From: Raillietiella orientalis
Taxonomy: Eukaryota
NCBI GenBank assembly: GCA_036172245.1
Contig: JAYWIR010000026.1
Coordinates: 992,001 to 1,056,000, forward strand
Direction: 5' to 3'
Length of the DNA: 64,000 bases
The notes below the pieces were generated by a model that worked only from the letters and a program-made list of their open reading frames with translations, was not told the origin of the DNA and ran no database searches. This document shows positions 1-64,000 of the stretch, piece by piece. Made by a program: the position numbers and the translations under genes. The first letter of the stretch is position 1. Each line of letters opens with the position of its first letter.

Positions 1-141
1 CACATACCAGTAGATTCTCATTACTATGATAGGCAGTATTCAGCACAACAGACTGAATGGGGTTCAAGTACTTGCAGCCACGAAACAACAATTGTCCAAG
101 CTAACTAGATGATAATAAATGCAAGTTGAATGCATACTCAC

Positions 142-1735
142 ATCATCCAACTGATCAATTGCAATTCTTTTCTGATTATGTAATGGGGAAGTAGTTGTAG
201 CAGGAATGAAAATTTCCTCATAATTTGCTTCATTGGTGCATTTGTAATCAGAAGGCAATGACATTTTGCAGCCAGAAATATAAGCTGTGACATCAATAAA
301 AAACATGGATTAATTCACCAATCATTCACCTGCTGTATTTTTAGTTTCTTGGGAAGAATCAAATACAAAAGGATAATTTACTTGTGATGAAGAACTGTGG
401 AAAAGTGGTTGTGATGAGGAACCATGGAAAAGTGGTCGCACTGAAGCAGCTAACAGTGCATTTTCTCTACAAAAAGCACTGCATACACTAAGTGCAAATA
501 CACCTTACCTTTCTTTCTGAAGCTCCTGCCAGGTTTCATTATCTTTTCCGCTGGACTTGTTCATGAATTTTTTTTCTTCTTTACGAATCATTTTTCTCAA
601 CTGCTTTTCCTGTTCTGACTCTACTAATACCATTCCTTGACAAACTGGCTGCTTGAAACGTTCCTCTTTCCTGTATGTGGAATAAATACTCGAATCTGCT
701 TTACGATTACCACATCTATTTGAGCTTCCATGACAGAGTTCTAGACGATGTGCAAGGATCTGACTAATTAAATCTAGTTGATTAAAACCTAACAGTTCAC
801 AAAGCTTTCACAAGAGATAAATCAACTCTCAAGGTTTACAACACACCTCATTTTCTAATTCCAAATTGCTTTTAGAAGTCATTAATAAGGTTATCACTGA
901 AGCAGCCATTTCAGAGACTGTGACATTAACATCAGGGCACAACTTCTCTTTTAACCACTGCAAATCAAACTTGACTCTGTTTGCTGCTATTTGAGGTGGC
1001 TTAGTAGAAGCTTTCACAACAGACATAAAACTTTCTCTTGTCAACAGGCTATCTAGAGGTTCGTTGAAGCTAAGTTTGAAGAGTTTATCTACTTCAAGAT
1101 CTTTCAGTGGATCCGAACATGAGAATCTGATGTTAGTTCCGAATGCTTTTGTCAACAGTTTCCATGCATCTGAGGTGTCATTAGTGAAGATCAATTCCTG
1201 ATGAAAATTTTGCAACAATGCCTTAACAATCTGAAATACTTCTAGTGACATAATTAAAACAAGGTAAAACAAACTTTAGAGGCATCGTCAAATAAACGCC
1301 TATCAATAATTCCAAATAAATTACGCAGCTTAATGAAATCTTGGGTGTCAAGAGAATCTTTATTCAACAAGATGTTGAATAAATAGCATATTACATCTTG
1401 AATAATTTCAATTTTTTCTTCTGCACACATCGTACTGCGTATAATTTTAATCAAATTTGCCAGTTCTTTTTGCAAATTTTCATCCGGGGACTTCACTAAC
1501 GTTTGCAACTTATTCCAAGTAATGTGAACATTCCTAATAATAGAATCAACAAATCAATAAGCCTGCAGGTTAATATTGAAGGAGTCCGAAACCTTTTATG
1601 CCTTTCAAACTGTTCTATGTACTTCTCATTTAGATTGAAAGATTCACATGTTGTCTCTGCAGTACTTAGAGATGTATGTGCAATAAATGCTCCTGATAAT
1701 CGTGGAACATCCAATTGATTGATAAAATTTTCCAT
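142..1735 (-). CDS. ASCC3: ASCC3-like Ski2-family helicase, N-terminal six exons (1735-1593, 1533-1275, 1230-847, 804-509, 466-330, 284-142); gene continues past the left edge
   Basis: Spliced translation gives DVPRLSGAF..ITWNKL..LELENE|LCELLGFNQLDLISQIL..VESEQEKQLRKMIRKEEKK..RENALLAA..YPFVFDSSQETKNTAAYISGCKMSLP..YEEIFIP..IAIDQLDD, matching in order the ASCC3 N-terminus as I recall it (PRLTGA..LQDELFELLG..QSEQEKQLMK..YPHVYDS..AFIAGAKMILP..YEEVRIP). Five GT-AG introns (59, 44, 42, 42, 45 nt) all keep frame; GTGAGT donor at 141. The helicase core is outside the window. Confidence 0.88.
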
Positions 1736-3094
1736 TTAAATATGCTATTGCTTAAATATACTGGTAAAAATACGATTGCAACATTCATAGGTTCAACTCA
1801 CAAGCTTCGCATTTATGAAAAGAGCACGGAATGTATAGAGCCGTACGCTTCAAGTTTTCCTCTTTCAGACTATTTTGAACTGTCTTTTAACAAGTGTTAC
1901 CAAGTTCATGACAAAACAACCAACCAACCATTATAAAATCATAAAATTATTTTATGATTTCCCAATATATATTATCAAATCATCATGAAAAACAACGCTC
2001 AATTTAATAATTGGAAAATATAAGCATATAAATATTAAGTAATAAGTTAACAAACGGGCAGAGCAAAGAATACATTCACATCGGAACATATTATCAAGCA
2101 CTATATGTTCCTTATCGGCAAAACATTAATTCGTAACGTTTGAAGGTTTTCAAATTTTTTCTAATATTACTCCTAATTTTTTTGATTTTCTTTTATGATT
2201 CCTTCTTTTCCTCAGATAAATAGCATCCCGGAAAAAAACGATCAACTAATAAGTAAAAGCTTTAATTTGTTGCTTATTCAAAATAACCTAAAATGTTCCA
2301 GTGTGAGCTAATGAATTCGTCAGCCACCTTTTGGTCTAAAACAACTTCACATTCTGTTTAGTTCTGTTGGGCATGACTGTATTGCATGTAATTCAAATTT
2401 GCATGCAGACGTAACATGTATAAAAACTTTCGAATCTTTTGCAAAAGGGTTGCATAACCAGTTCAGAAAAATGTTGCAGAAGTTCTTGGGATACATTGTT
2501 TTAGATCTTTGAAGAGATGCAATTACCCTCACATTTCAACTTACATGAATCCGTCTAAGGAATCATTTGTAGACAACTTTTTACTCTTCCATATCTGAAA
2601 TAAGGTAATGAGCAACGAAAGAAAATATATCACCAAAAGTTATTGTTACTAATAAACGAAAGACAATCTTACGATATTCATTTTAAATTCCATGCGACCT
2701 GGTCAGAAAAGAAATGAAGAAATATACAATTCCAATGAATTGGATCAAATGGAAGATAATCGCAGGATCTTTGTTATGAGAAAGCAAAATCAGAAATTTC
2801 GATGAAATAACAGCAGAAACTACTAAAAAGACACAGGACATTCCAATGAACTGGAAGAATTAGTTAAAGACATCGATTTAAGCTGCACTTTTCTTTTACG
2901 GTCACAAGTTACAAACACGTTGCCCAAAAGACATTTACAGTAAATCATAAGAGATAAAAATCTTAATTTTAATCGGATCCTTTCTCAAAATAAAAGAAAC
3001 TAAAGCTTGTTCCTGTTTTGGACTAATTTGAAATGCATATTGAAAATGTCAAACGTGTCAACTTCAAGTTTCCTACAAGTCTACTCAAGTCCCC

Positions 3095-3508
3095 ATTACA
3101 AAGTGTCGTATGACATGCGCTTGTTATAAGAGGGGATCACGTTTTGCCCTCTACCACCGAGTGCCAGTGTGGAGGAAGTGGAGGTACCCTTCTGAGCAAG
3201 CGGACAGCGAGGCAGCGGAGTGGAAACGTGACAGCAGCAGTTGTCTGCCGATACGGAGATGATAGCATCAGCGTCAGCAACAACCTCTCCAGGCAGCCTA
3301 GGCGGAAGAGACGGCATCGTTCTCAAGGACGTCGTAAGCAGCGGTAACAGTTTTTCACCCGCTCACGCAGAGTCCTTTCTTTACAAGAAATAAAGGAAGA
3401 TGAGAGCGCAGTTCCCGAAACAGAATCAAGAAAGGGTGCGGGGTAGGGGGGAAGCGGTTCTTCGGGAGGATCCACCGACACGCAGGAGCAGATGCAGCAA
3501 CCGCCTAG
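3095..3508 (+). pseudogene. Possible degenerate ORF1-like remnant at the array edge
   Basis: GC-rich, Cys/Gly-rich start followed by basic and acidic low-complexity peptide with in-frame stops; no diagnostic motif. Confidence 0.25.
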
Positions 3509-6850: not shown

Positions 6851-7099
6851 CCGTTTCTCCGAAAAAGGCTGGATGCCTAGCGGCAAAAGCCGCGAAAAGC
6901 GGCGGCGCGTTGCTCGAAGACACCCCGCACCCGGAAGCATCCTCCCCAACGCGGCATTTTTCCCCAAGTCCCACGAGGGGTGGAGTAAATTTATTTTTCA
7001 AAAATTTTTCTATAAAAACATTCACACTACAATCTCATCCATACCATTAGCACTTTTTTTTACCACTATGAAGTCCTTGGGTTCTCACAAGTTCTGCAC

Positions 7100-9031
7100 T
7101 CATGGTGGGTTTCCTGCTGTTTGGTCCCGGGAGTCGTCTTCTATCCTCTTCAGGATGAATCGGTACGTCCAGGCTTGGATTTTCCCACAGTTTCTAATGC
7201 CGATTTCCCTCTTCAGGAGCCCTTGTAGGGTCTCCATCGGTGGTGCGGCTCTTCTGGCTTTCCTCATTTTCCACCACCGCACAAGTATGGCGGTGATGAA
7301 GAGGGCGATGGTCGTCCTCACCATGGGATTGTAACAGGGAACATTACCATCCCCTTGAAACATCCCGGCGAGGATCTCGTGGTCGATGGAGTCAAAAGCC
7401 TTCTCCATGTCAGTGAACAAAAGCACCAGGTTCTCGCCGACGTATCCACTGAGTCCAACAGTGGCCTGGGCACACTTGACATTCTCCGACATGTGTCGTC
7501 CTGGGACTGCACATGTCTGGACCGGAGAGATCAGCCTCGACATGACCTTGCCTAAGCGGTTGGACCAGATCTTCGCCAACCACTTGGCATCGGAGCTTAG
7601 GATCGAGATTGGCCTCCATTGGGCGATCTGGGTAGAGTCGCCTCCTTTCGGCAGCAATCTCATCCGACTCTCGTAGAAGGACTAAGGTAGTCTGCCTTCT
7701 TCCTGGATGCAGAGGGTCAACTGGTGGAACAAGCGCAGGTAGGCGTGCAGGTACCGCTGATAGTGCGTGATGGGTACACTGTCAGGGCCCGCTGCCACGT
7801 CCTTGCGAAGTTGCCCAAACGCAGTCTTCAACTCTTCTTCGGAGAACTCCTCCTCCAGTCTGTTCCGCTCAAGGTCGTCGGTCCTCTTCTCGAGATAGCT
7901 CAAGAAGGCCTGTTGACTAGAGCGACACAGATGTTGTCGCCTGAAGTGTTTCATGTGATGCCTGTGAAAGGCATCCACGATGTCCTCAGACGACTGTCGC
8001 TTTTGGCCGTCGTACTGGATGCAGAAGATATCTGTTGCCAGATTTCTCTTCTCTAGCACGCCGACTTCCCCTTTTATGTTATTGAGGACGTACCGACTCT
8101 CGTACTGATCGAAGTACTTTGAGAGGGAGCGATCTTGGATGTTCAGCTCCCGGTACGCCTCTTGCCTCAAGCGCCTATCCCCGAACTGCATGTTCGCAAA
8201 CAGGTGTATCCTGTGTTTCAGGCTGTCCCAGTCGGCGACTCTTCGGATTGTTGTTGCCCTCAGAATCGCCTCCAGGACAGCCTGATGTCCAGGATGTGTC
8301 TCGAACCAGTCGGGCATGCTGATGAGCGCCGCCCTGGTGCCTTGCCTCCGCCGAGGATTCTCCGTTCTTAGGGAAAACCGCACCAGGGGGTGATCGGACA
8401 CCGTAGTCATAGTGTCGCGAAACCCCTGGATGCGGTTCCCAAGTTCGGTGCTGTGCAGGACGTGATCGATTGGCTTGTGGCTTGCTGTTCGCCAGACCAG
8501 TCCGAACTCCTCGGATAGCCGTCGATACGCCGTCCTTCCTCTGGCGTCTTCCGAATGAATGATCTCATCCAAAATGTTGAGATCGCCAGCAACAATCACG
8601 ACGTCCTTGGGGGCGACCTTTTGCCGGAGTGTTGCATGCAGCGCCTCCGCACAACGATGTTTTAGCCTGTGCGGCCCGTACACGTTCACCAGGATAAGGT
8701 GAACAGTTGCGGACCAGGCTAGTCGCACGCCGATGATTCGTCCGGGTTGTGGACAGAACACTTCCAGAATAGTGGGGGCTAAGTGGTTCTTTATTAGCAC
8801 CGCCACACCCTTCGTGTTCCGTTCTCCTTCGCTGACGAACATCTGCCCGTTGAATCGCCGTTCCATTCGCTGGCTGATCTCGAGACCCATCCTGTGGGTC
8901 TCCTGCAGGCACACGATGTCTTGTTGTGCGATGGTCCGCACAATCCTTCTTCTTTTTCCCTGGTCGACCACACCGTTTACGTTCCAGGAGGCGATGTTCA
9001 GCCTCCTGGCAGTCGATAGGGAAGAGGTCAT
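7100..9031 (-). pseudogene. ORF2 of copy X (APE + partial RT, internal stop at 7682, deleted)
   Basis: APE motifs, AAGPDS, WRPISILSSDAK, DMEKAFD; YADD region missing. Confidence 0.85.
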
Positions 9032-9632
9032 AAAAGGGGAAGACCTATTTCTTGGCCTTCCTGAGCTTCTTCTGTCTGGGAGAGCGTGCTCTTCCAGACG
9101 TCGAAGAAGCAGCGGGCTTCTCGCTGCCGGCGTCACTCTCCGTACCTGTGAGGTCGGTAATTTCCGCCTCCTCCGTAGAGTGTTCCGCCTGCGCGATCAA
9201 TTTTCGAGATAGCGCCTCTATCTCGACCTTGGCGCAGAAGTTCGCCTTCACGTCGGGAAGCTGTTCCTCTAACTTCTCGCGTTCAGCGACCTCCACCACC
9301 TGGTTGATGTTCTCTTGTGCAGTGCAGATCTTCTGCAAGATTTTCTCTTGCTGAGGACCGCTCTGCACCTCCATGATCTCCTCCGCCAGTGTTGCCAACT
9401 CCTCCGTGGTCTGCAGAGCCTCCTGCGACACTTTAGTGGCTTCCTGTCTCTCTTCCTTCGCGCCTTCCTGCGCTGCCTCCATCTTCTCGCCTTCCTGCTC
9501 TGCTGCTTCCAGGATTTGAGGAGTTCCTTGCTCCTTGACGAGCATCCTCCTCTTTTTCTTCTTTCCCACTTCTATGAAGCCGTCCGCCGACACCGGGACG
9601 GCTTCTTTCACCTTCTTCGGCCTTCCTGCCTT

Positions 9633-10916
9633 CTAAGGCTGTTCGGCCTCCTTGATGTTTCTCTCTCTCACGGGAGAGAGACCGCGAATCCTTCTGCAGT
9701 TTTCAAACTCCGGACAGCTCCATTTCGCATGTCCGTGTTTCTTGCAGAAGGAGCACACCTCCGGCTGCGGGCAGTTTCGAACTTGATATCCTACTTTGCC
9801 GCAGCGAAAGCGGCGGCAAGTTGGGCAAGCGCCGGCCCTGTGGCCGAAGTGCTTGCACCCGGTGCAGAATACCGGTTGTTGCCGGTAACGCACATTCACT
9901 CCCTGGGATTGTTCGTCAATAACGGCCAATCCAGGGATCACCGCTCCCTCCCTCAACTTCATCTTGGCGATCATGTCGCCAGAAAATTTGTTTCCAGAGA
10001 AGTTCTGGAAATCGAGGTCCAGAACTTCCCCAAACTGCTCCAAGTAATTCCACACCGCTAGTTGCGGTGTGAGGATGGAGATGCCGTTTAGAAAGACGGT
10101 TGTGTATGGCATCTCGCCAATACCACAAACCATCCGTCCTTGTATATTGATCCCCTTCTGGATCAATCGCTCTCTAATGTTTTCACAGTCTGTAAAGACT
10201 GTTAACCCGTTGTTCGATGGAATGATCGCCTGAATGCGATCAAAGTCTATGTCCGTCTTGTCGAGGGACAAATAGACCTCCCTGATTTTATTAAATTTTA
10301 TTAGCCCGGTCTTGAAGATAATGGGCTTCACGTTGGGGCCTATTTCGACTATTGGTCGGTCCACTTTTAGAACTTTTCCGCTAAGCGGCTTACCAAATTT
10401 CCTAGGTGGGTGGACACTCGCCTGTCCAGCCGCCACCGACGCATAAGAAAAGGGCTGCGACGCCGCAGCCGAACCAGATGGCGTCGCTCCCTGCACCGCG
10501 TGAACGCCCGCGGGTCCCGCCTGGGACGCCGCCGCCGCGGGCGCAAACCTCGACGTCACCGCCGCGGGCGGCACCCTCGGCATCGCCGCCGCAGGAGCGA
10601 CCTTCCCCGCCGCGAGCACGACCTCCGCCGTCGTCGCCGCGGGCACGACCCTTGGCATCGCCGCCGCCGGCGCAGCAAAGCCCGCCGCGGGCGCGATCCT
10701 CGGCATGCCTCTCGCAACCTCGCCGTTGCCGCACGTTACCTCCATGGCTTCCATGGGGGACGATGGCCTCACCACTCCTCCAACTCCAGATGCCTGCATC
10801 CTGGCAGCTGTTCCGGCTGCTCGGGACGACTGCAGGATTTCCACCGTGGAATTCTCGGCGCTGCTGCTGCTGATGATGATGGTCCCGGGTTGCACTCTTT
10901 CCACACTGGCGTTCAC
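9633..10916 (-). CDS. ORF1 of copy X (three CCHC knuckles, Ala/Pro repeats)
   Basis: CTGCKHFGHRAGAC, CGKVGYQVRNC, CSFCKKHGHAKWSC. Confidence 0.85.
   Translation of the reverse strand: MNASVERVQPGTIIISSSSAENSTVEILQSSRAAGTAARMQASGVGGVVRPSSPMEAMEVTCGNGEVARGMPRIAPAAGFAAPAAAMPRVVPAATTAEVVLAAGKVAPAAAMPRVPPAAVTSRFAPAAAASQAGPAGVHAVQGATPSGSAAASQPFSYASVAAGQASVHPPRKFGKPLSGKVLKVDRPIVEIGPNVKPIIFKTGLIKFNKIREVYLSLDKTDIDFDRIQAIIPSNNGLTVFTDCENIRERLIQKGINIQGRMVCGIGEMPYTTVFLNGISILTPQLAVWNYLEQFGEVLDLDFQNFSGNKFSGDMIAKMKLREGAVIPGLAVIDEQSQGVNVRYRQQPVFCTGCKHFGHRAGACPTCRRFRCGKVGYQVRNCPQPEVCSFCKKHGHAKWSCPEFENCRRIRGLSPVRERNIKEAEQP
10525..10715 (-). repeat. Degenerate GC-rich coding repeats in X ORF1 (MPRxxPAA units)
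   Basis: MPRIAPAA, MPRVVPAA, MPRVPPAA, SRFAPAAA. Confidence 0.6.
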
Positions 10917-13900
10917 TCAAACACTTGCCCTCTCAGGGCACTCAAAAATTGCCTTGGCAGTGGTTTTAAACACTGCCTTGGCGGGGTATTGGGTATAGTT
11001 TTAAACTAGCAATAATCACGCCTCCCTTTCGTTCAGCGGCGGCGATACCGCCCGTGCGCAAGGCTCTCGCGATCGCTAAAGGAGTTGCTTAAGCCTGCGT
11101 GGAGGCAGCACTTCAAGAGGCAGCCAAGGCAACGCCTCTTACATCCGTGGGAGCAGCGCCATCTCAGGATGGCAAAGATAACTGCGACGCGAAGGAAGAC
11201 GGCTGGATGCAGGCGAGAAAGATCATTCGAAAGAAACCATCAAGGTCTTCGCAGCTCTGTGTGAAGGTGAGTGGGCGAAAGAAACCCGCGAAACCTTCCC
11301 AGAAAAAGATTGCGATTCTTTCCTCCTGCGCAATCGTCCTCTCGCGGCTGGAGCGGGAAGCTGCTGCTGCGGCTAAGAGGACGAAAGTCCCAGGCGCAGT
11401 TGCAGAAAGCGCTAGGAAACAGGCAGCGAACGATCTCCCTAATTCCGGGAAACAGCAGCAGTGCCTGGCAAGCGCTCGACTGTCGGATTCCGATCCAGAG
11501 TCCGACAGAAAGAGCACACAGCGCGACAACCGCCCGAAACCGCGCAATCGCCTCCCGAAGATCCGCAAGCGCGTGGTTGCCGAGGAGAAACTGTTGTTGG
11601 AGAGCAAAGAGGAGGAAAAGGACCTCACCTCTGAGCTATCGGCAACAAGCAGTGCGGCTTCGAATGGAGATGTCCAGTCTCCGAGATCGACCGCTCTGTC
11701 TCGTGACGACTCGCCGGACAAGGCGAGAAATCTGTTCTCACCTTCCCAGCCTTAATGCAGGAAATCGTCTCTTTCCGTCGATACAGCGTAGCCTGTTGGA
11801 ACGTCAATGGGCTGCGCAGGGACGGAAAGAGGCGCGACGTGTCAGACACCCTGCGACATTTCGATTTGGCGATCCTTCAGGAGATGCATTACATCTCCGA
11901 TGAGGAGGTTGCCGAAATCGAACAGCGCGCGGGTGGCACCCTGTACTGGCGAGAAGGTTTTGCACAATCGTGCGGAGTCGGGTTTCTCGTTAATAGTAGG
12001 ATGGCGGGAGCAGTGCGCAGCGTTCGATTCGACAAGGAAGGCAGAAGAGGCCAACTTGTACTCAAGTGATCAGATTCAATCGACCTCGTCGTAACGAACG
12101 TCTACGCGCCGAGCGGCTTTCATCGGCGTGTCGAAAGAATCGAGTTCTTCGACGTGCTGAAGAGCCAATGGCTCAGAAACTCCGGAGCCAGAGTGGCGCA
12201 TCTCGTCGCAGGGAACTTCAACGTCCACCTGCTTTCCAACGAGACCCGATCCCTGGCGGAACGGTCGCGGGTGGAAGAAGCATGCGCGTTGGTGCACGCG
12301 TGTAACTTGGAAGCCGGCGAGCCTGGACTGGAAAGGAACGTGGATCACCTCTACCTCGATGAACACCTACTCTCGCGAGTGGGAAGGAGAGGCAGGGTGC
12401 CGTCCACGTTATCGGACCATGATAGGCTGGAGTTCGAGCTACTCCCGCCTGGCAAGGGACCTCCAAACAACGTTTAAATTATGCCGGCGGATTGGCTGAG
12501 TCACCCGGAAGCGGCGAAGCATCTTCGCCAGTTCCTTTGCGGCTCTGCCATCCGGGAACTCGCAGACTGGGACCATCTTAAAAGATCGGTTCGCGAGTTT
12601 TGCGACCGGTTCCCCCTGCAACTGCTACCACGCGGCTTCGGGGAAGGCGTGGCCAATAGCAGAGCATTTCTGCAGGCGTGCACCTTCTCGAGACGTGCGG
12701 AAGTCCGGCAACTCGCAGAGTACAAGGCGAGGGCCGAGCGCCAGGTCTGGCAGTCTGGAGCGGCTATTCTGCTCGACGACCAAGGCCGGGAATGCACGGC
12801 TCCTGCCGAAGTGCGGCGAGCACTAAAGCGTCACTTCTCCTCGCTCTACGCTAATTCCCCGACGGAAAGAGTCCTCTCCGAACTACTTTTGCCGCGGGCT
12901 GCACATGGCATCGGCGAGGAGGAACGCGATCGTCTCGACGAGCCCTTCACGTTGGAGGAAGTTTCTTCCGCCATCGCAGGACTCAAGAGACGGGAGACGC
13001 CAGGTGAGGACGGACTGCCCGCGGAGTTCTATCAGAGCTTCGCGGCGGAACTCGCCCCACTGGTTCCTAGAATCTCGACGCTGATGAGGGTGACGGGCGA
13101 TGTCCCTTCTTCCTTCCGCTCAGAAAGGGTGCGTCTCCTTCCGAAAGGAGGGGATCTGCGCCAACTCAACAAATGGCGTCCGATCACATTAGTGAATAAG
13201 GACGTCAAGTTGTTTTCGAAGCTGTGGGTCACGCGCTTAGGGAAAGTCGCGGAGTCCCTGGTAAGCCCGGAGCAGTCTTACGCTGTACCGGGTAGATCAA
13301 TGGATGCGAACCTTCTTTTCGCGCGCACCTGGTGGCAGCTCCAAGAGCGCGTTGCAGCGGATAGCCGAACAGCGGCAAGACCTTCTGCCGACTGCGTGCG
13401 CCAGTGCGAACGGACGGAAGAAAGGCCGGGAGCCTTGACACCAGCAGTAGATTTGCACAAAGCATTCGATTTTCACCCGGATTTCGCCGGGGCGTTTATT
13501 ATAAAACAAACATCTACAAAGACGTGCAGTGGCTGGACCATTGCTCCAGCCACGCACGAAGAAACACAGAGCCTGCCGGGTCACCGGTTTGCAGACCGGT
13601 ACGGTCCACCACGGCAGCAGGGGGAAGGGGGAAAAACAAAAAACAAAACAAAAAAGAAGAGAAAAGTTGGGAGGGTAAGGGAAGGGATCACAGTTGCTGG
13701 TGGGGCCGTTGCATCCTTTGCAGGATGCCGGCAAGCTCCTTCTGTATTTCTGAATCCAGGTGGGGCCATCGGGACGCCCTCCTCTGGAACTGGAAGGCTG
13801 GCTGGATGGCACCCTGGTCGCGTTGTCCTCTCTAGGCCTTGCCCCAAGCGGTGACGATCCCGCGTAGGCAGCACAAAGCTGCTAACGAGGCCGCTGGCCG

Positions 13901-18216: not shown

Positions 18217-19036
18217 ATCTCTTGCGCTTGTTCTGCAGAGATCACGTGGATCTCCTGCAGCAGCGCAAGGTCGTAGGACTCCAGAAAGGCGGCCATGTCT
18301 CGTCTCCTGCCGGCGTCTGTCATGCCGTTCACGTTCCAAACGGCGATGCGCAGACGACGGCGGGAGGAGATTCCCGGCATTACTGCTGGGAAGATTAAGG
18401 TGTGGGGGAGCCCTCGTCTTGCGAGGCAGGCGGGATGTCCATGGGGGTTTCGGCCTTCTCAGGCACCTGAGGCACCTGTTCGGCCTCCAACCCCTCCATC
18501 CCCTCCGTGTCCGCGCGTGGGAGTCTCTCGGGCGACGGGTCCAGAGAGTTTCCCACGCTCATGGCACCCTCGCTTGCGGAAGCCATCTCTTCCCCTTCGA
18601 CGGGGGAGACGAGCTTCCTTGGCTTTGTGGACTTACGTACAGCCTTCTTGCGCGGTGCCGTGGAAACGGAGGCTGCGCTTCCGGCCTCCACCACGGGGTC
18701 GGAAGTGGGGGACTCCTGAGGGAAGGCACGACGCCTTACGGCCTTCTTGGCAGCCTTGGAGGGTTCTGGCTGCAACGAGGCTGCCAGCTCCTCCGCGGCT
18801 CACGCAAAGGCTACGTCATAGATGGTGGTGTCGATGACGGACGCCGCCGCCGGCTCGCTCCGCTCGCTGTTGACAGAGTCAACAGAGGAATTGTCGTCGG
18901 TAGCGGCAAGTTCTTTTTCGCAGCGGTCGGGAATACACTCGACGACGACGCCCGCACGGACGTGTACTGTGTTGCTCCTCGAGCGTGATTCCTTTCCGTC
19001 TTTTTGTGTGTGGTGTGCCCGAGTGCGTCCACTGGG

Positions 19037-20980: not shown

Positions 20981-22037
20981 TGCGTGGACTCACGTCCGCT
21001 CGTCGCTTCAGCGTGACCTGTTGGAATGTCAACGGGCTACGTGATGCTGACAAAAGGCTGACGGTAGCCAACGCTTTGCGCGCGTTCGATCTGGTGCTGC
21101 TTCAGGAGATACATAGCATCTCCGTACGGCAGGCATCGGATCTGGAAGAGCGCGCGGGCGGGACGCTACTCTGGCGGCAAGGCTCCGCGCACACGTGCGG
21201 AGTCGCGTTTTTCGTCCGAGGCAGGGTGGCGGAGGCGGTGCGGAACGTTTGTTTCGACGAGGAAGGTCGTGTGGGCCAACTTGTCCTCAAGTGGTCCGAA
21301 TCGATCGACCTGGTCGTTACGAACATCTACGCGCCGAGGGGAGGCCGGCATTGCGCCCAGCGACTTGCATTCCTGGGTGGCCTGCGCAGCCGCTGGCTCG
21401 CTGACTCCGGCCCTAACGTGGTGCACCTCCTTGCAGGAGACTTCAACGTCCACCTGCTAACAGAGGAGAGATGCCGCTTGAGGGAGAAGCAACTGGTGAG
21501 CGAGGTATGCGCGTCCGTGTGCGTGCAAAACTTGCTTGCTGGTGAGTCCGGGATGGAGAGATCGCCGGACCATGCGTTCCTCGATGAACACCTGCTCTCA
21601 CGATTAGTTCGGAGAGGGCGTCTGCTGTCCGCGAATTCGGGTCATCCTAGACTGGAGTTCGAGCTCCTCCCGCCTGGCAAAGGGCCTCCGATGAATGTCT
21701 GGAGATTGCCCGACGACTGGCTTAGCAATTCGGAGGCGGCGGAGCATCTTCGCCAACACCTCCGGGGCTTCGCCATCGGTGAACTCGAGGACTGGGACGA
21801 TCTGAAAAGATCGGTCCGCGAGTTCTGCTGCTGGTTCCCCTTGCACCTGCTTCCCCGCGGGTTCGAGGAGGGTGTCGCGAACAGCAGATCGTATCTGCAG
21901 GCGCGTACCTTTTCACGATGCCCGGACGTCCGGCGTCTGGCGGAGTATAAGGCCAGGGCCGAGCGCCAGGTTTGGCAGTCTGGAGCGGCTTGTCTGCTCG
22001 ATGACGCTGGCCAGGAATGCTCGGCTGCAGCCGAAGT
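20980..22037 (+). CDS. ORF2 N-terminus of A1: APE endonuclease and linker (truncated)
   Basis: CWNVNG, LQEIH, CGVAF, NIYAP, AGDFN, PDH, SGH (SDH in A2/A3). Confidence 0.9.
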
Positions 22038-33228: not shown

Positions 33229-34692
33229 GTGTACTCGTGGAGCGGATTCCGGCCATCGACGAATGCGGCGCTAAAGAACTCGCTGCTGCCCCTGCTCAAC
33301 CCTTTGTTGACAAAGTCAACAAGGAAGTGAGCGAGGCGGCGGCGTCCGTCATCGAGCTCACGCTCGATGACGTCGCCTTCGAGCGCGCCGCGGAGGAACT
33401 GGCTGCCTCGTTGCAGCCAGCCGCCCCCAAGGCTTGCAAGAAGGCCGTCAGGAGTCCGGCTTCCCCTTAGGAGTCGGCCACTTCCGACCCCGAGGTGGAG
33501 GCCGGAAATACAGCATCCATCTTTTCGGCACCCCGCAAAAAGGCAGGACGAAAGTCCACAATGCCCCGGAAGATCGTCTCCCCCGACGAAGGGGAAGAGA
33601 TGGCTTCCGGCTGCGAGGGTGCGATGAGCGTGGAAAACTCCCGAGACCCGCCGCTCGAAAGAATCTCACGCTCCGGGACGGAGGAGATGGAGGGGGTGGA
33701 GGCCGAACAGGTGCCCCCGGTGCCTGAAGAGGCCTCCGTCCCCATGGACATCCCCAACACCTGCCCCGCGGCAGGTGGTGCAGCGCCACCTTCGCAGCAT
33801 TAAAGCCGGGAATCGCGTACCGTGGTCGTCTGCTTATCGCCTGCTGGAACGTCAACGGGCTAAGCAACGACGGCAAGAGGCGTGCCGCGGCCGCCACCCT
33901 AACCTCCTTCCACTTGGTGCTCCTGCAGGAGATCCACGTGATCTCCGCAGATCAAGCCCGGGAGATCGAACGGATCTCGGGTGGTCGGCTGCTGTGGCGC
34001 TGCGGTATCGCGAAATCAAGCGGTGTCGCCTTCCTGCTCCGGCCAGACATCGAGGCCGCAATCAAGGACGTACGGTTTGATGACGCCGGTCGCGGCGGTC
34101 AGCTGACTCTCAGCTGGTCCGACTCAATCGACCTGGTCGTCACCAAGTTGTACGCTCCTTGCGGTAAGGACGAGTTGAGGGCGAAGGCAAGAAGAGAATT
34201 CTACCTTGCCCTCGGACGCGATTGCCTGATCGAAGCAGGTGTTCGCAAAGCGCACCTAATCGCAGGTGACTTCAACCTGCGCCTGCTTTCAGCTGCGCTG
34301 GATACACTGAACGACCGCGTCAACGAGTTGTGCGCGCAAATGCACACGTGCAACTTGCTGGCCGGAGATACGGACATGGAACGGAGCATCGATCACGTGC
34401 ACCTTGACCAGCACCTATGCTCTCGCGTGGGCAGGCGCGGCAAGTTACCGTCCGAGCTGTCGGACCATGGCCGAATCGTGTTCGAAGTGCATCCGCGCGA
34501 CAAGGACCCCCCCTCGTCAACATGGCGTCTCTCAGGGGACCGGCTGAAGCTCCCGGACGCGGCGGAACATCTCCGCACGTTCATACGGAACTTCAGGATT
34601 CGGACGCTTCAGGACTGGGACCGCTTCAAGCGGTCGGTCCAGGAGTTTTGCGACCGGTTCCCTTTGCATCGCCTACCTGCGGGATTTGGGGT
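33229..34692 (+). mobile_element. Copy H (lineage 2): ORF1 tail + endonuclease, bounded by A2 and C2
   Basis: VLVERIP..AAEELAASLQ; WNVNG, LQEIH, GDFN, IDH, SDH; ends at RLPAGFG. Confidence 0.88.
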
Positions 34693-37600
34693 TGTCACCC
34701 GGGTACGCCCGAGGCGTTTATTGAAAAAACTCTGCATAAACGTGGTACGAGGCCCCACTAACGGCCACACAACATCGGACCTGCCTAGACGCCAGGACGC
34801 AGCCCGGCATGACGCTCCTCGGCAGTGGAGGGGGATAGGGATCAAAACAAAAAGAAAAATAAAGATATGAAAAGAAAAACAAAAAGAGTTTGGAGGGAGG
34901 GGAAGGGACAACAATCCACTGGGAGGAGGGCCCATCCTTCGCAGGATGCCCTCCAGGTCCATCTTCATGCTTCCCAGATGGGGCCATCTCGCAGCTCTCC
35001 GCATGAAGCAGACCGCATACGGGATGACATCCCTCGCGTTGGCATCCACTCCTTCGTCGCGAATGACGCTCCAGGCCGCCACGATGCCCCGGATGCAGCA
35101 GAGGGCTGCGAGGGCTGCGGCGGGATGCAAGGCGTCCCGCACGAAGAGGGGCCGAAGAACGTCTCTAGGCGCGCTGCCCATTGGGAGCCCGAGGGTCGTC
35201 CCGAACCGTTCCCACAGGAGCAGCACAGTCAAAAAGTAGGTGGGGGAGCGATTACCGCTCCCCACACCTGGCACACTCAGGCCTTACACTTCCCCGCGTC
35301 CAGTGGAAGCGGCGCGCGTTGCAGGGTAGACCCCAGTGCAACAGCAGCAGCGCCGACTCTTGCCACTTCAGGGGGAGAAGCCTGAATCCGATTAATATTG
35401 GGGGCCACTTCAGGTCATCCGTCGGGATGCCGAGCAGCTCGCCGTATCTACGAAGACCACGCGGGAGGTCACTCGGGGTCGTGGCATCTGCCAGTTCTCC
35501 CATGGTCCAACCGCTCATCTTCTTCTCCTTGCCTGCGATTCGGCAGGAGACTTGCCACTTCGGCTTGCGGCCGCTGCTTAAAGCCCTTCGTAGGAAGGGC
35601 AGGGTCGAAGCTAGAGGGGTAGTCTCCGCCCACGTGCTCCTGGCGGGACACTCCAGAGTAGTCCGCAGTGTGCAGCAGGCGTTGGGGCCGAATCGCAGGC
35701 GGTTCCAGTCCGGGGAAGTCTGGAGGTTCAGCTTGGCACACGTCGCAAAAGATTCCTCGAGCCAGGCGGAGGAGTTGGCGGGCTGCATACCGTCCAGCCG
35801 TTGTCTCTCACCAGGGCTTCCATGCGCCCAAGGAGAAGGCCGCATCTTCTGACCTTCCTGCCAGAGCACAGAAGGTACGACGCGAGTCCTTGCGTCCTGG
35901 ACACACGGCTGGCAAGGATGCGGGCCGGAACGCACCAAGGGGTGCTCCATGACTTTGCTGCGATGGCGAGAGTGCGCCATCGCAGCTGTATGTCCAGGCG
36001 CTCCAGCGTCAGGAGGCCGAGACCGCCGTCCCGACGAGGAGCGCATAAGTCATCTAGAGGCACACGTGGCCTCCCGCTGCCCCAGAGGGCGATGCGGAGT
36101 AGGTCCTTGGTTCTCTTTTTAATTTCACGGGGGACGGGGCAAACAAAAAGCAAGGGGCGGAGGATGGGAGCCGCAAACGCGTTCCACACCGCGGCCCGTT
36201 CCGGCAGAAGGAACTTGCCTTCCAGGAACGGGCCGATTGCCAACTCTACCTTTTGGAGACGACCTGACCAGGCTTCTGCGAGGCAGAAGTCCCCCAACGG
36301 GACACTCAGGTACTTCAAGTACCTGGTCGCGGGAATCCCCAAGCGGATCCAGTCAGGCCGTCCGACCCACGTTGCACCCACCGGTACGACCGACGACTTC
36401 GCCTTGTTTACCCGAAGTCCAGTCCCACGACTTAGCAGGTCGAAGAAATCCTCGACTGCGGCTGCCGGGGCGGACATGGGCAACAAGAGCAGAAGGTCGT
36501 CGGCGTATGCTGCTACGGCGGGCGTGCCGGGGCAAGAGCTGGGCAGGGCAGCCAAAGTCACCCTGTACGCTCTCAGCACCAACTCAAAGTAGGCTGTTGC
36601 CCTGCCATATGCACCGCCGCACCGGCACGCCGTACACCTGTTGGCTGGAAAAGCAGATGTTAACAATGGCGTTGCGCCAGCAGGAGCGCAGGAAGGAGAG
36701 AAGGGAGGGTGGGGAGCCCATGCGACCCAGGAGCTCCAACAGTAGCTCCTGGTCAACGCAGTCGAACGCTTTATGGAGATCGACCGCGATCGCTAGGGCC
36801 CCTTCCCAGCCCGGGTGTCCATTCCCAGCCCAGCTGACGGCCCCAAAGTGGGGTTGATAATCTTTCCGCCAGTGTCATTTAGGCAGCGCTGCACATGGAA
36901 CCATGTGCTCGCGAAGAACAGGTTGGCATCCATACTTCGCCCGGGAACAGCATATGTCTGCTCCGGGCTAATAATGGATTCTGCCACCTGCCCCAGACGC
37001 GAAGCCCATAGCCCGGCAACCAACTTGGCGTCCGTATTCACAATCGTGATCGGACGCCAGTTGTTCAAATTCCTAAGGTCTCCCCCTTTCGGAAGGAGCC
37101 TCACTCTGGCTGACCGAAACGAGGCGGGAACTTCGCCTTCGTCTCGGATCAGCCTTGTCAGCTGAAGCAGCAGGGGTTCCAGCTCTTCCGCGAAGCTCTG
37201 ATAGAACTCCGCGGGCAAGCCGTCTTCCCCTGGAGCTTTCCGCCTCTTGAGCCTTTTGATACCGGCGAGAATTTCGCCGGTGGTAAAAGGCTCATCGAGG
37301 CTTAACGACTCCTCCTTTCCTATTGCCGGGGCACCATCCGGAAGCAAGAGCCGAGAGGCATCTTGATCCGGGGGTGCCTTGGCGTAAAGGGAGGAATAGA
37401 AACTCCGCACGAGATGCCGTACCGACGCCGGGGACGAACATTCCCGGCCCTGGTCGTCCAGCAAGCTGGCCGACCCGGATTGCCAGGCTTGGCGTTCGGC
37501 CCCGGCGCGGTACTCGGCCAGGCGACGGACATTAGGGGTTCGCTCGTACCTACGGGCCTGTAAATAGGCCCGATGGTTGCGAGGACCCTCGCCGAATCCG

Positions 37601-40316
37601 GAGGGCAGGCGGTCCAGGGGGAACTGCTCGCAGAATTCCCGGACCGATTCCTTAAAATGGTCCCAGTCTTGGAGATTCCGGAGCGTGACGCTTCTCAGGT
37701 ATTCGCGAAGGTGTTCCTTCGCACCTGAGAGTCGCGTCCAGTCCCCCGGCAGACGCCAGTCTCTGGATGGCGGTCCTTTGTCGCGAGGCCGCATCTCGAC
37801 AATTAACCGGGAATGGTCCGACAACGTTGACGCAACCCTCCCCCGTTTGCCGACCCGTGAACACAGGTCAGCGTCGAGGAAGACGTGGTCGATGCTGCGG
37901 ACCATTCCCCTCTCACCCGCGAACAAGTTGCGCGCACGCATGGCGGCGCACAACTCGGTCATCGCGTTCACCTGTGTTTCCGGCTCACCTGTTAGCAGGC
38001 GGAGATTGAAATCTCCCGCTATCAGGTGAGCCTTCCGCACGCTCGTGTTCGCCAGCCAGTCGCGCTTCAAGGATTCAAGCAGCCTGGTACGGTTGCTGTA
38101 TCCCTTTTGACCGGGTGGGGCGTACACATTCGTGACGATCAGATCGATCCAGTCCGACCAGCCGAGAGTCAGCTGACCGACCCGACCGTCGTCATCGAAG
38201 CGCACGCCCTTCACGGCAGCGTCGATGGCCGGCTTCACGAAGAACGCGACCCCGGAGGTGTTGCGGATGCCGCATTGCCAGTACAGCCGACCCCCCGCGA
38301 TCGTCACGATCTCCTGGACGTCTGCCGCGGTGATCACGTGGATCTCCTGCAATAGGGCCAGGTCGAACTCCCGCAGGGTGTCGGCTGTATCTCGCCTGTT
38401 ACCGTCGTCGCGCAGCCCGTTGACATTCCAACAGGCCGCGCGAATCCGACGGCGACTGGCGAGCCCAGGTGTTACTCCTGGGAAGATGGCAGTGTGGCGT
38501 CCGCCACCTGCTGGGGCGGGACGCTAGGTGGAGCAGGGGGGTCAGGTGCTGAAGGCACCTGGTCCCCCTCCTCCATCGGTGCCGGCGCGTCGGCCGGATC
38601 ACCCGCAGGTGGAGTCGCGCCTACCTGTTCGCCCTCCACCATGGGGGCGGGCTGTTCAGGGTCGGCGCCTGCAGGGGGGACTTCACCCCCCTGTTCACCC
38701 TCCTCCATGGGGGTGGCCGCATCGACGGCTTCCGAGCGTGGGAATTACTCCTCCGAATTTCCCACGCTGGCGACGGCTTCCGTCTTCTCCTCCTCGCTGG
38801 TGGAGGGGAGGCGCCTCCTGGGCTTCTGGGACTTGCGTCCCGACTTCCTGGGGGGTGCCTCCGAGGAGGAGGATGTGCTTCCGGCCCCCAGGTCTAACTC
38901 ACCTTTTGGGGCCTTCCTCGCCGGAGCCGGCCTTCGCACGGCCTTGCGCGAGGGGTTCTCACGCTCGGCCAGCGTGACCGCGAGCTCCTCCGCCGCCTGC
39001 GCGAACGCGGCGTCCGCGGCTTCGACCGCCGCTATGTCGCGCGGCTCACCCTCTCTGTAAACAGAGGGTTCGCCATCGCGAGCCTCGGGCGCAGCGGAAA
39101 CGGCAAGAGGAGGATCGACGCTCCGGGTGGCAATCTCGGGAACGACGATTCGTTCGAGTGCCACCGTGCACTCGCGCAGAGTTTTCGAGCGCGGACCGGG
39201 TTTTTTTGGCTTTCCGGCCGTCTTGCGCTCTTTGCTCTCCGCGGGTGGGAGTTTCCTTGGTTTTCTGGCCTCTACAAGCTGCCATCCCTCTTCGCCTTCC
39301 ACCGTTTCAGAAGGTTTATCCTCCGGCTTACGCGCCGGAGGTTCAGGTGTTGGCAGCTTGTGCTGGCCCTTTTCCACTTTAGGTCTAGAGATTTTTTTAG
39401 CGCGTTTCCCCTGCGCTTTTTTCGCGGCAGGGGGAACCGGGATGGGACGTTTTGGGCACACGCGCCGAACGTGGCCCCGCTCCCCGCACAAATGGCATTG
39501 TATATTGGGACACCTTTTACGTAGGTGTCCCACGGTATCACAATGCCCGCAAGACCGGGGCTTCCCTACATACCACAGGTCGACGTTTTCTTGCGCCACC
39601 TGTAGTTTGTGGGGAAGCCCACAATTCTCCCGTACGGTCACCCGCGCTGCAGCCTGCCCACCAAAAAGGCTATCGAAGCCGTCGAAAATGGAGGGTTTCG
39701 GCCACAGTGCGTGCACCTCACCGTACTTTCTTAATTCCTCACCCACCGCTGACCGCGTCATGCGGCTGGTGATGCCAGTCATGTGGACCACCACGGAGCG
39801 GTCCATTGATACTGGCAGGATCTTTCGGCCGTCTACGTTCAGCGGCGCATGGATTAGGCGGTGAGCCAAGGTGACATCTTTGCAGACCACCTCGACCCGC
39901 TGCCCGCCGCTGAGGACGGAGAGGCCGTCCAGATCCTTCTCAGTAACGTTCGTGTCCTTCAACGCTTTGCTGAAGGCGCGCGCTGTCCGGCCGTCGAACA
40001 AGTTGCCTACCTGGTAGACAAGCGATGGCTTGTACCCGGAGGCCTTGTATGCGGCCATCTCCGCCATGGCTTCTGCGCTGGGCGCGGCCACCATGGCGCT
40101 CCATGTCCTCGGCGTGGCCGGGGATGATTCCGGGGCGGCTGCCCCTGCTCCAGTAGGCTGTGGGGGCGAACTAGCCTCCCCCACTCCCACCTCCATCGCG
40201 GTGTCCTCTAGCGTCGTGGCCATTGGACACCGACGATGTACACAAAACACCACACAGAAGAAAAAGCGCTTTCCTACTACTCTTTGGGGAGTGAAGGAAA
40301 AACACGTCCTCCAACT
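34693..40316 (-). mobile_element. Copy C2 (lineage 2): both termini present (~5.6 kb), frameshifted
   Basis: GGACGTG 40309-40303; ORF1 from ATG 40223; APE-RT frame 38352-36793; YADD ~36500; hairpin 34696-34722. Confidence 0.92.
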
Positions 40317-41752
40317 GGCCGCGGAGGGTTCTGGCTGCAACGATGCAGCCAGCTCCTCCGCCGCACTCTCGAAGGCGGCGTCATCGATCACGGTCTCGAT
40401 GACGGATGCTTCCGCCGGTTCGCTCCCCACGCTGTTGACATTTTCAACAGTGGGTTGCTCGTCGGTAGCAGCGATTTCTACCTTGCGGCGTTCTGCGAGG
40501 ACGGATTCCACGACGACGCTGCATTCTTTTAAATTCTCGCTAATTTGCTGTTTTTTATTTTGATAGGCGAGCTTTTTTTCAATTCGTCGTTTTTGCTTCG
40601 ACTTTTTCTTTTTCGCTGTGGCTTCTTGCCATTCCGACACCTTTCCGCTTTTGTCGATCTTTTCGGCATTCGTAGTCGGGGTGTCGGCTGCGGCCTGGAC
40701 CAAGGGTGTGGGTGGCACAGCTTGAGCGGCAGCCTTCGCCGCCAGCCTTTTCTGTAGCAGCTTCGCGCGTTTTTTTAGGTTCCTCGCGGAAACCACGCGC
40801 ACAGCGGATTGTGGGCACACTTCCTTCGTGTTTTCCATTGTCCCGCATACCTGGCACTGTATGTTGGGGGACTTCCTTTTGAGGTGTCCCGACGTGTTGC
40901 AGAAGCTACAGTATTTGGGCTTCCCTACGTTCCAGAGTTCGACGCTTTCTCCGCCGACCACCAGTTTGTGGGGAAGGGTAGAGCCCTACCGATCGGTTAC
41001 ACGGGCAGCCGTGAGGCCGCACTGAACTGTGGTATAGTCCTCGAAAGGAGTAGGCTTGGTCCATACTGCATGGACCGTGCCTTCTTTTCCCAACGCGGCG
41101 CGTAACTGTTCTTTCCGCATTCGCGCGGTAACTCCTAAAAGGTGGACCACCATACTGTGGTCCGCCGTAATGGGAAGGAGCCTGCGTGTCCCTATCACCA
41201 CGGGGGTACTGAGCAGACGTTGGGCCAGATCTGCATGTTTGCAGATCACCTCTACGCACTGCCCCCCGCTACGAATGGTCATAGCGTAGAGCTCCTCCTC
41301 TTTAACATCGAGAGCGCGCATCCCCGTCGAAAAGGCGCACGCACTCTCAGAAGAATACAAATTTCCTACCTTGTAGAATAGTGATGGGTTATACCCCTCT
41401 TCTACATAAGCAGATAATTCCGCCGCGGCTGCAGGCGTTAGCGCCGACACGACGGCGCTCCACGCCCGCGCTGCAGCGGGGACCGGTTGTGTGGGGGCAG
41501 ACGCCCCCACCTCCATCGCCACTGACGGCGACGTTGCCGCCGCTTCCTGGCACTCCAACTTTCCTAGAGGCGACGTTGCCGCTGCCACCTGGCACTCTAT
41601 TTCTTCAGGAGGCGACGTTGCGACCGCCCCCTGACGCACTGGTGGTCGTGTCAGGCATGGCTGCCTGATCGATCACCACCACACACCAAGCCTACACCTA
41701 CGGACGGTTCCCGGCACAAGGAGCACCGAGGAAACATGACCGCTCTAACCAA
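40317..41752 (-). mobile_element. Copy E1 (lineage 2): 5' end and ORF1 only
   Basis: 5' UTR and ORF1 (EEGYNPSLFYKVGNLY) closely match 63990-62600. Confidence 0.88.
41505..41630 (-). repeat. 42-nt tandem coding repeat in family E ORF1 (AAATSPxxxxECQ), three units here and two at 63800-63870
   Basis: GGCGACGTTGC recurs at 42-nt spacing (41527, 41569, 41611). Confidence 0.7.
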
Positions 41753-61748: not shown

Positions 61749-64000
61749 AACGTTGAAATCACCGAACCACATGGGCATTCCGCACGCCTTCTCTGGTCAG
61801 CCAGTCGCGCCGGAGAGCAAGGAAAAACACTTTCCTCCCCCTCCTATTCATCAGGTCCGCGCCAATCGGTGAGTACACGTTCGTGACGATCAGATCGATC
61901 GAGTCGGACCACCTGAAAGTCAGCTGGCCGACAGGACAGTGATCGTCGAACCGCACGCTCCAAGCCGCGGCCTCGACTGCTGGCCGAAGCAGGTAGGCGA
62001 CACCGCAACTTTTCGGTTTCCCACACCTATACCATAGCCGCCATCCGGAGAACCGTTCGATCTTTTGCGCTTGTTCTGCACAGATCACGTGGATCTCCTG
62101 CAGCAGCGCAAGGTCGTAGGACTCCAGAAGAACGGCCATGTCTCGTCTCCTGCCGGCGTCTGTCATGCCGTTCACGTTCCAAACGACGATGCGCAGACGA
62201 CGGCGGGAGGAGATTCCCGGCATTACTGCTGGGAAGATTAAGGTGTGGGGTAGCCCACCTCTTGCGAGGCAGGCATGATATCCATGGGGGTTTCGGCCTT
62301 CTCAGGAACCAGAGGCACCTGTTCGGCCTCCACCTCCTCCATCCCCTCCGTGTCCGCGCGTGGGAGTCTCTCGGGCGATGGGTCCCGAGAGTTTCCCACG
62401 CTGATGGCACCCTTGCTTGCGGAAGCCATTTCTTCCCCCTCGACGGGGGAGACGAGCTTCCTCCGCTTTCTGAACTTACGTCCAGACTTCCTGCGGGGTG
62501 CCGTGGAGACGGAGGCTGCATTTCCGGCCTCCACCTCGGGGTCGGAAGTGGGGGACTCCTGAGGGGAGGCCGGACGCCTTACGGCCTTCTTGCCAGCCTT
62601 GGAGGGTTCTGGCTGCAACGAGGCTGCCAGCTCCTCCGCGGCTCGCGCGAAGGCTACGTCATCGATGGTGGTGTCGATGACGGACGCCGCCGCCGGCTCG
62701 CTCCCCTCGCTGTTGACATAGTCAACAGAGGGGAGGTCGTCGGTAGCGGCAAGTTCTTTCTGGCAGCGTTCGGCAACATGGAGAACGCGTTCGACGACGA
62801 CGCTGCACTCTTTAATTATCGCGCTACCCTGCTCTTTCTTCTTTTGTTGGTAGGCGATTTTTTTTTCCATCCTCCTCTCCTTCTTTGATTTTTTTGCCGT
62901 TGCCACTTGCCACCCAATCTCCTGGCCGGCTTTCTCAACTTTTTCGGCGTTGGTCGCCGGAATCTCGGGTGCTGCCTGGGTCTTGGGAACGGGTGGCACA
63001 GTCTTCGCGGCAGCTTTCGCCGCCAGACTTTTCTGCAGAAGCCGGGCGCGTTTTTAAAGGTTTCTCTTGGAAACCACTCGCACTGCTGCTTTTGAGCACC
63101 CCTCCTTCGTGTGACCCATTGTGCCGCATACTTGGCACTGCACGTTGGGACACCTCTTTTTGAGGTGGCCCGACGTATTGCAGAAGCCACATTATTTCGG
63201 CTTCCCCACATACCAGAGTTCGACGGTTTCGCCTTCGGCCTCCAGATTGTAATGAAGAGTGCAGCCCTCCCAAAAGGTCACGCGCGCAGCCGTGAAGCCG
63301 TGTTGTAGCCCCGTGTAGTCCTCGAAAGGACCAACTTTCGTCCACTGCGGGTGGACCGTTCCAAACTGTTCCAAAGCGGCGCGAACCAGTTCTTTGCGCA
63401 TTCGCGCGGTCACGCCTAACAGGTGGACCACCATGCTGCGGTCCGCCGTAGTGGAGAGAAGCCTGCGCGTCTCCATCACAACGGAGGTTTTAAGCAGTCG
63501 TTGGGCCAGCTCTGCATGTTTGCAGATGACCTCAACGTACTGACCCCCGCTGCGGAAGGTCATAGCGCTGAGCTCCTCCTCTTTCACATCGAGAGCGCGC
63601 ATGCCCTTCGAGAAGGCGCGCGCGCTCTCTAAAGAATATAAATTGCCTACCTTGTAGAGCAATGAGGGGTTGTACCCCTCCTCTACATAGCCCGACAATT
63701 CCGCCGCGGCTGCAGGCGATGGCGCCGACACAACGGCGCTCCACGCCCGCGCTGCAGCGGGGACCGATTCCGTGGGGGCGGATGCCCCCACCTCCATCGC
63801 CTCTGGGGGCGACGTTGCCGCCGCCCTCTGGCTCTCTATCGCCTCTGGGGGCGGCGTTGCCGCTGCCCCCTGGCCATCCCTGGTGGTCGCGTCAGGCATC
63901 GCTGCCTGATCGACCACCGAACCACACGACGCTTGCACTGGGGAAGACTTCCTGGCACGAGGAGCACCGAGAAAACACGTCCACCCTGGAGCGCACAAGG

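Follow-up and report, generated by a model that had tools for sequence, protein, structure and literature searches.

The endonuclease (EN) of human LINE-1 (L1) carries, within the segment I180-I204, a short helix, a connector and a bB6-bB5 hairpin. The hairpin is described as conserved in every solved LINE EN (PMC1919474), and both activity and the choice of site are said to depend on it (PMC1919474, PMC1950540). In L1 it acts mainly as a probe of DNA structure that supports activity (PMC1950540), and the role of sequence reader that an earlier note on this DNA gave to it was overstated. The engineered L1-EN loop deletion L3G, with a Thr-to-Asp distance deduced as 6, keeps 10% of nicking and 0% of retrotransposition, T192V keeps 5% of retrotransposition, and selection after the nick has been proposed for L1 (PMC1950540). 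R1Bm, TRAS1 and SART1 are site-specific APE-type LINEs (PMC1919474, PMC7265360) that keep the hairpin, with a Thr-to-Asp distance of 11 in R1Bm (T175-D186), and in which EN swaps set the site (PMC1919474). In this group, the 3' sequence of the RNA pairs with the nicked target and improves priming, as described for SART1, and priming by R1Bm is aided by downstream target sequence, as cited in the same source (PMC7265360). Moreover, R2 RNA that carries upstream 28S sequence gives uniform 5' junctions through annealing of flank-derived cDNA (PMC3774820). Tx1L, Keno and Tx1-Mar combine an APE-type EN and a CCHC ORF1 with targets in transposons or snRNA genes (PMC4494074, PMC4640811), and target choice in the Tx1 clade is credited to the EN (PMC4494074).

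The window analysed here, the whole stretch of 64,000 nucleotides, belongs to a eukaryotic assembly of 210 Mb and holds a nest of L1/Tx1-like retrotransposons, which is bordered at positions 1-3400 by AT-rich DNA (35% GC) that is not LINE. The elements have an ORF1 with a zinc knuckle and an ORF2 with EN, RT and C-terminal CCHC, as in L1; their RT groups with L1/Tx1, the best RT matches are Tx1-like proteins of fish and alligator (31-34% identity), and the zinc-knuckle ORF1 and sequence-specific insertion recall the Tx1 clade. The EN resembles that of human L1 (PDB 1vyb, 7n8s, 8sp7) in fold (Z 25-26, rmsd ~2.1 A) and in its catalytic residues. However, the clade described below has 19 fewer residues between N147 and I204, families C, A and H (C/A/H) lack T192-F193, and insertion occurs at fixed 10-16-bp targets instead of TTTT/AA and leaves no poly(A). 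The loss in this clade is natural and under selection, in contrast to that of L3G, and the nearest measurable Tx1 relatives retain a spacer of 58-64 residues and the Thr-aromatic anchor.

Spacer and hairpin of the endonuclease

The EN features of the window are as follows.

37771-38451, minus strand: APE-type EN domain that opens ORF2 of element C2 (P0003) (sequence, model, fold match to L1-EN)
38092-38124, minus strand: YAP motif of C2 EN and the following loop/helix start, candidate substitute DNA-reading surface (putative role)
38005-38016, minus strand: GDFN motif of C2 EN, with the D145 and N147 equivalents (sequence)
37894-38004, minus strand: C2 EN spacer from GDFN to IDH, 37 residues as counted (human L1, 56)
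37891-37926, minus strand: residues 176-187 of C2 EN, a 12-residue coil that would replace L1 I180-I204
37813-37890, minus strand: DH (D205 equivalent) to SDH (D229 and H230 equivalents) of C2 EN, at normal spacing
8342-9010, minus strand: EN of element X, with a 35-residue spacer at 8471-8575 (sequence)
21001-21690, plus strand: EN of an A-family copy, with a 39-residue spacer
33824-34507, plus strand: EN of an H-type copy, with a 37-residue spacer

In C2, GDFN begins at 38016 and IDH at 37893, and the 37 residues between them end in NLFAGERGMVRSIDH. The nine measurable copies of the window have spacers of 37 (at 38016, 27328, 34265 and 49460), 39 (12211, 21436, 45768 and 30746) or 35 residues (8587), and none of the nine contains YT(F/W); this agrees with the earlier note, which had given 37 for C2 and H, 39 for A1 and 35 for X, labels assigned here to window copies by inference. 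The 56 residues that it quoted for human L1-EN were likewise recovered, as N147-I204 counted on the 7n8s alignment. Across the genome, 102 of 110 distinct EN sequences have a spacer of 35, 37 or 39 only, and in the remaining eight the pattern fails to measure and the GDFN-SDH distance is unchanged. These 35-39 residues compare with 50-79 (median 59) in the 158 measurable sequences among 224 database homologues, 152 of which retain a T/S-aromatic motif; these 224 comprise 107 single-sequence hits plus profile matches (120 listed), biased by a profile built with normal-length ENs, and the single-sequence search alone gives 50-68 for the 46 measurable of its 107 hits. Among proteins retrieved through the RT, 33 of 85 are measurable, with spacers of 39-75 and of 58-64 in the closest ones. 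Some distant RT relatives have a short spacer yet retain a Thr-anchored loop, P0302 having 39 residues with a normal one, and thus length alone fails as a mark of the clade, which is marked by the lost anchor and hairpin rather than by length itself. Equally short spacers, which the earlier note had named as counting against its reading if common among non-specific L1/Tx1 elements, are absent from the 158 measurable homologues; P0302 has one. Two further distant RT/RNase H proteins, P0314 and P0315, have a Thr-to-Asp distance of 8 and possibly represent an independent shortening of the hairpin. The 19 missing residues correspond to two deletions, of ~6 residues past GDFN and of ~13 over the DxWR..HP..YT(F/W) segment; in profile comparison the gap of X falls on this motif, and its placement is less clear for C/A/H.

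The AlphaFold2 model of C2 EN (pLDDT 88, from a 53-sequence alignment) predicts the ExoIII/APE four-layer fold, and its best fold match is L1-EN (Z 26.4, rmsd 2.1 A, 210 residues). In the model, a helix (158-171) and a strand (173-175) are followed by coil up to the strand that starts from D188; residues 176-187, at pLDDT 85-86, form no beta-bridge, and the secondary structure of the model contains no protruding bB6-bB5 hairpin. These 12 residues would stand for ~25 of L1, in a register drawn from the secondary structure of the model and the alignment of L1 PDB chains. The T192-F193 anchor is missing in C/A/H ENs, whose stub lacks a conserved Thr and has Leu176 and Met183 as its only invariant residues. 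X ENs retain an invariant Thr seven residues ahead of the D205 equivalent (13 in L1), followed by Ala instead of an aromatic residue. Modelling of X EN without an alignment was uninformative (pLDDT 40), and no TRAS1 or R1Bm chain occurs among the 60 PDB matches listed, the R1Bm numbering being that of PMC1919474. On the model and the anchor residues, the hairpin is absent in the group of C2 and cut to a stub in X, as the earlier note had proposed, and its loss is a real, clade-wide feature.

The catalytic set N14, E43, Y115, D145, N147, D205, D229 and H230, which the earlier note rightly held to be retained, is conserved in 18 of 18 ENs at six positions and in 17 of 18 at D229 and H230. Moreover, dN/dS in the EN is 0.15-0.31 (eight comparisons), and open ORF2s of ~1200 codons occur in the C, X and A-related families; the EN is thus under purifying selection with its active site kept, and is predicted, from dN/dS and the target duplications, to nick DNA. 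Decay or frameshift as the cause of the short spacer is ruled out by the 102 of 110 ENs with 35, 37 or 39 residues and by the intact ORF2s. An RT tree (57 sequences, FastTree) joins X and C/B/D in one clade (support 0.983) within the L1/Tx1 group; the clade is a long branch whose place among the L1/Tx1 branches is weakly supported, with few named references. Since the short-EN families form one clade, the loss of the hairpin is derived inside the L1/Tx1 group. Thus, the view that the shortening is ancestral rather than decay stands as to decay, and is true as to ancestry only for the clade itself. As L3G and T192V are nearly dead in L1, compensation is required in a clade that lacks the hairpin. 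An invariant Trp-Ser at EN residues 98-99 (38155-38160, minus strand in C2), located at the turn that leads into the Y115 strand, is common to all short ENs and absent in typical relatives, and may make up for the loss of the DxWR helix.

Close relatives were found neither among the longer database proteins nor in the 80 metagenome loci retained of 144; the one member of the clade that turned up elsewhere, P0004, is a 106-residue metagenome fragment (53% identity) that stops before GDFN. A cluster atlas search gave generic EEP clusters only, and no hairpin-less or RNA-targeted APE LINE was described in the mainly open-access literature searched.

Insertion sites and element ends

The ends of C2 and of the X copy of the window are located as follows.

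40310-40327, minus strand: 5' junction of C2, with a 10-mer like the C-a target, then the element head
34681-34720, minus strand: 3' end of C2, with AATAAA, a hairpin and no poly(A), joined to a C-c target
10928-11079, minus strand: U4 snRNA-derived head of element X (10928-11065) behind the 16-bp target site T (11064-11079)

The elements are sequence-specific, with fixed 10-16-bp sites in other LINEs or in snRNA sequences. Their ends consist of AATAAA, a hairpin and few A's, and no A-run longer than 5 occurs past 123 matches to the 3'-end motifs. For one 3'-end query (30 loci examined of 40 matches), the same 11-mer from the EN-RT linker of other LINEs starts 26 of the 29 junctions read; of the other three, two are different and one comes from the homologous position in another family. 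For a further 18 C copies, the type of head and the 5' junction agree in every one (18 of 18), 13 copies lying at the C-a site, which is in the ORF1 of the host element, and five at the C-b site; C-a is the EN subfamily of C2. Target duplications of 10-16 bp lie between tandem copies and carry host-specific variants on both sides, with clean examples at L223 and L063. Relatives of X that begin with U1 or U4 terminate within a U1 or U4 sequence, at about base 20-26. With the hairpin gone, these sequence-specific elements must owe their specificity to something else. LINEs of the Dualen type, which have dual endonucleases, carry a second, restriction-like nuclease after the RT; no second nuclease domain was matched by Pfam in four intact ORF2s (1179-1254 aa). 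Of the sources that the earlier note had listed, namely another surface, another domain or RNA, a further nuclease domain has no Pfam match in its favour, RNA is the one to which family X points, and a different surface of the EN is a real rival, especially in the subfamily of C2.

The C-c target that abuts the 3' end of C2 lies within the EN-RT linker of the neighbouring LINE and does not match the C-a site at its 5' end, which makes C2 a probable recombinant between two subfamilies. C2 (34681-40327, minus strand) also has a frameshift near 36793. The C-a target is contained in a long quasi-palindrome (window 18785-18840 and 62628-62690; L233, L239), the outer stem of which is perfected by the common variant of the C-a 5' junction. 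At host junctions this position reads GCGG in nine cases, AAGG in four and otherwise in three; the variant looks element-borne, without this being proof, the alternative being copying from the upstream arm of the quasi-palindrome. A GGACGTG motif lies a few bases into C, A and related families, often past a short hairpin (3514, 18950, 25031, 40309 and other 5' ends), and these families have in common the 3' AATAAA and hairpin without poly(A). Rfam models gave no match to a 5' HDV-like ribozyme in the window and 15 loci.

A full copy of U4 or U1 snRNA begins copies of family X (window 10928-11065, minus strand; L075, L079, L080, L078), and a third type of X head resembles a decayed U1 5' end. 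The X copy at L376 (G000:C87:71300-71850) stops within a T-type U4 head, at its base 20; there this head differs from the other type of U4 head except in the first four bases. A U4-headed copy in AT-rich DNA (L080:8165-8215, minus strand) has a 16-bp duplication, and its extra 5' bases contain a perfect 9-bp inverted repeat.

Family X and the choice of target

In family X, U4-type heads lie at site T and U1-derived heads, with homology to U1 judged by eye, at site C, with both sites in one host ORF1. Site T precedes 26 of the 27 U4-type heads (23 by coordinates and three of the other four by sequence), and the remaining head lies at site C, with additional bases; U1-derived heads number 85 and matches to site C plus head 84, two different patterns that were not paired one by one. 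Full copies, six T and nine C, are separated by 163 fixed columns in the first 300 nt and by three in the remaining 5.3 kb (nt 1623, 1980 and 2323), in or near the EN, and a T copy, compared over its RT and 3' parts, is closest to a C copy in nearly every case. A larger EN sample (17 T and 22 C, grouped partly by coordinates, with the 3' junction read for part of the C copies) has no residue fixed between the groups, whereas five residues differ in majority state, all conservatively (L/I, S/N, T/I, A/T and D/E); at residue 60, S60 is found in 14 of 17 T copies and N60 in 20 of 22 C copies. The proposition that X ENs are identical in both target groups was weakened by this larger sample.

Discordant copies occur in both directions: L223 has a C-type EN at a T site, with an identical private variant in both duplications, and L055 and L209 have T-type EN residues at a C site. 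Divergence is greater in the T flanks (0.91-0.97 upstream) than in the T heads (0.94-0.98), as for independent insertions. At the other end, a variant in the 3'UTR goes with the 3' site, with A in five T and no C copies and T in two T and 21 C copies. The two ends of X are better predictors of the site than the enzyme. The presence of near-identical enzymes at different sites suggests that the RNA of the element helps to choose the site. Against this, the EN haplotype of X tracks the target in most copies; furthermore, seven X copies with mixed junctions, that of the window included, indicate that copies recombine after insertion, and thus the discordant copies may be gene-converted. The window copy (6958-11079, minus strand) has site T at its 5' junction, a site-C-like 3' junction and an internal RT deletion, and reciprocal copies are found at L202, L366 and L367. 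The head of the element as a guide RNA was unsupported, non-cognate head-target pairs scoring equally well: pairing of a head with its own target was better than non-cognate pairing in only one of five subfamilies.

The mechanism that we favour, to which we would give about an even chance, is that of a loosely specific nickase, with the productive site settled when flank-derived RNA or cDNA pairs with the target at one junction or at both. It starts from what sequence and model show, namely an absent or stub-like hairpin, kept catalytic residues, purifying selection, fixed sites with 10-16-bp duplications and missing poly(A). According to this proposal, the T192-anchored bB6-bB5 hairpin would have been lost once, long ago, in one clade of the L1/Tx1 group with a working active site, and the EN, deprived of its minor-groove probe, would be a weak and loosely specific nickase like the L3G mutant. 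Transcripts running through the flanks would have the former target duplication at one end or at both; its 3' copy would pair with the nicked strand and prime reverse transcription, the 5' copy would let the end of the cDNA anneal to the other strand, and complete insertions would arise only at sites that match the flank of the parent. Target choice would be inherited with the ends of the element and could be switched without a new enzyme, tandem arrays would result, and the EN would probably still add a loose preference. The precedents, namely R2, R1Bm and SART1, the post-nick selection proposed for L1 and the structure-dependent nicking by full-length L1 ORF2p (PMC10830416), are partial: in them protein sets the site and RNA sharpens it, whereas here RNA may switch the site.

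Alternative explanations and significance

A possible, although rather unlikely, alternative is that specificity still resides in the EN and has moved to the loop/helix after YAP, to loop 60-67 and to the loop after GDFN, the ends and heads merely travelling with it. In the group of C2 itself, EN, head and site co-segregate, with 15 EN residues that distinguish C-a from C-b. Four of the 15 differences are at residues 113-120, just past YAP (scan p = 0.07), where the loop of C2 is 5-7 residues longer than in typical relatives and differs among all C/A/H families, and it is in this loop that a substitute protein surface would be sought, especially in the subfamily of C2. The stub was ruled out as the discriminator, as residues 162-227, which include it, are identical between C-a and C-b in spite of their different sites. 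S60/N60 and the four other residues track the target of X in ~85-90% of copies, Y98 of R1Bm, in the matching loop, alters cleavage, TRAS1 and SART1 set a precedent for targeting by EN (PMC1919474), and C-b is inserted at homologous codons of several diverged hosts. Nevertheless, X has no extension of the YAP loop, T and C copies have no fixed EN difference, discordance runs in both directions, and five conservative changes would have to account for two unrelated sites of 12-16 bp.

It is improbable that the hairpin persists as a short groove-contacting loop, only the connector helix having been lost, which would make this EN a modest compact variant. By residue count, a Thr-less loop of R1Bm size fits the C sequence, where 15 residues run from the L177-equivalent strand to D188 and would accommodate an 11-residue loop if the connector were as short as in X; the C/A/H profile alignment places only seven missing columns here, and the distant, RT-bearing P0314 and P0315 combine Thr with a distance of 8 to Asp. 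However, C/A/H have no Thr/aromatic anchor, the confidently modelled coil has no beta-bridge, X has 11 residues in total for connector and loop, and the stub is the same in C-a and C-b.

The chance is slimmer still that the EN reads DNA shape, such as a hairpin, a cruciform or a single-strand/duplex junction, or is steered by another region of ORF2 or ORF1. Full-length L1 ORF2p nicks near single-strand/duplex junctions via its C-terminal segment (PMC10830416), the C-a site lies in the quasi-palindrome, and the ORF1 N-terminus is longer in T copies. However, no majority difference of ORF2 is fixed beyond the EN, Pfam shows no second nuclease domain, and shape alone cannot send groups with the same protein to different sites in one host ORF1. 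Finally, that the EN is vestigial and the elements spread by recombination or duplication of the nest is very improbable, for although mixed-junction recombinants are common and equivalent L1 mutants are nearly inactive (PMC1950540), the low dN/dS, the invariant catalytic residues, the clean target duplications with host variants on both sides, the tandem arrays and the insertion into diverged hosts all speak against it.

In a natural hairpin-less clade that exceeds L1 in site specificity, nicking and targeting come apart, and family X provides a direct test of how much LINE site choice follows the nick, a long-open question. If five conservative residues decide, a new specificity surface would be mapped; if RNA decides, the family would be a lead for programmable RNA-templated insertion. 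The further proposal that the clade traded its protein hairpin for RNA-DNA pairing, with transcript-borne target sequence programming the site, is put forward tentatively and is open to considerable doubt. If it is true, one enzyme would serve many 10-16-bp targets, a lineage would retarget by acquiring a new end, and these elements would represent a naturally retargetable LINE integrase.
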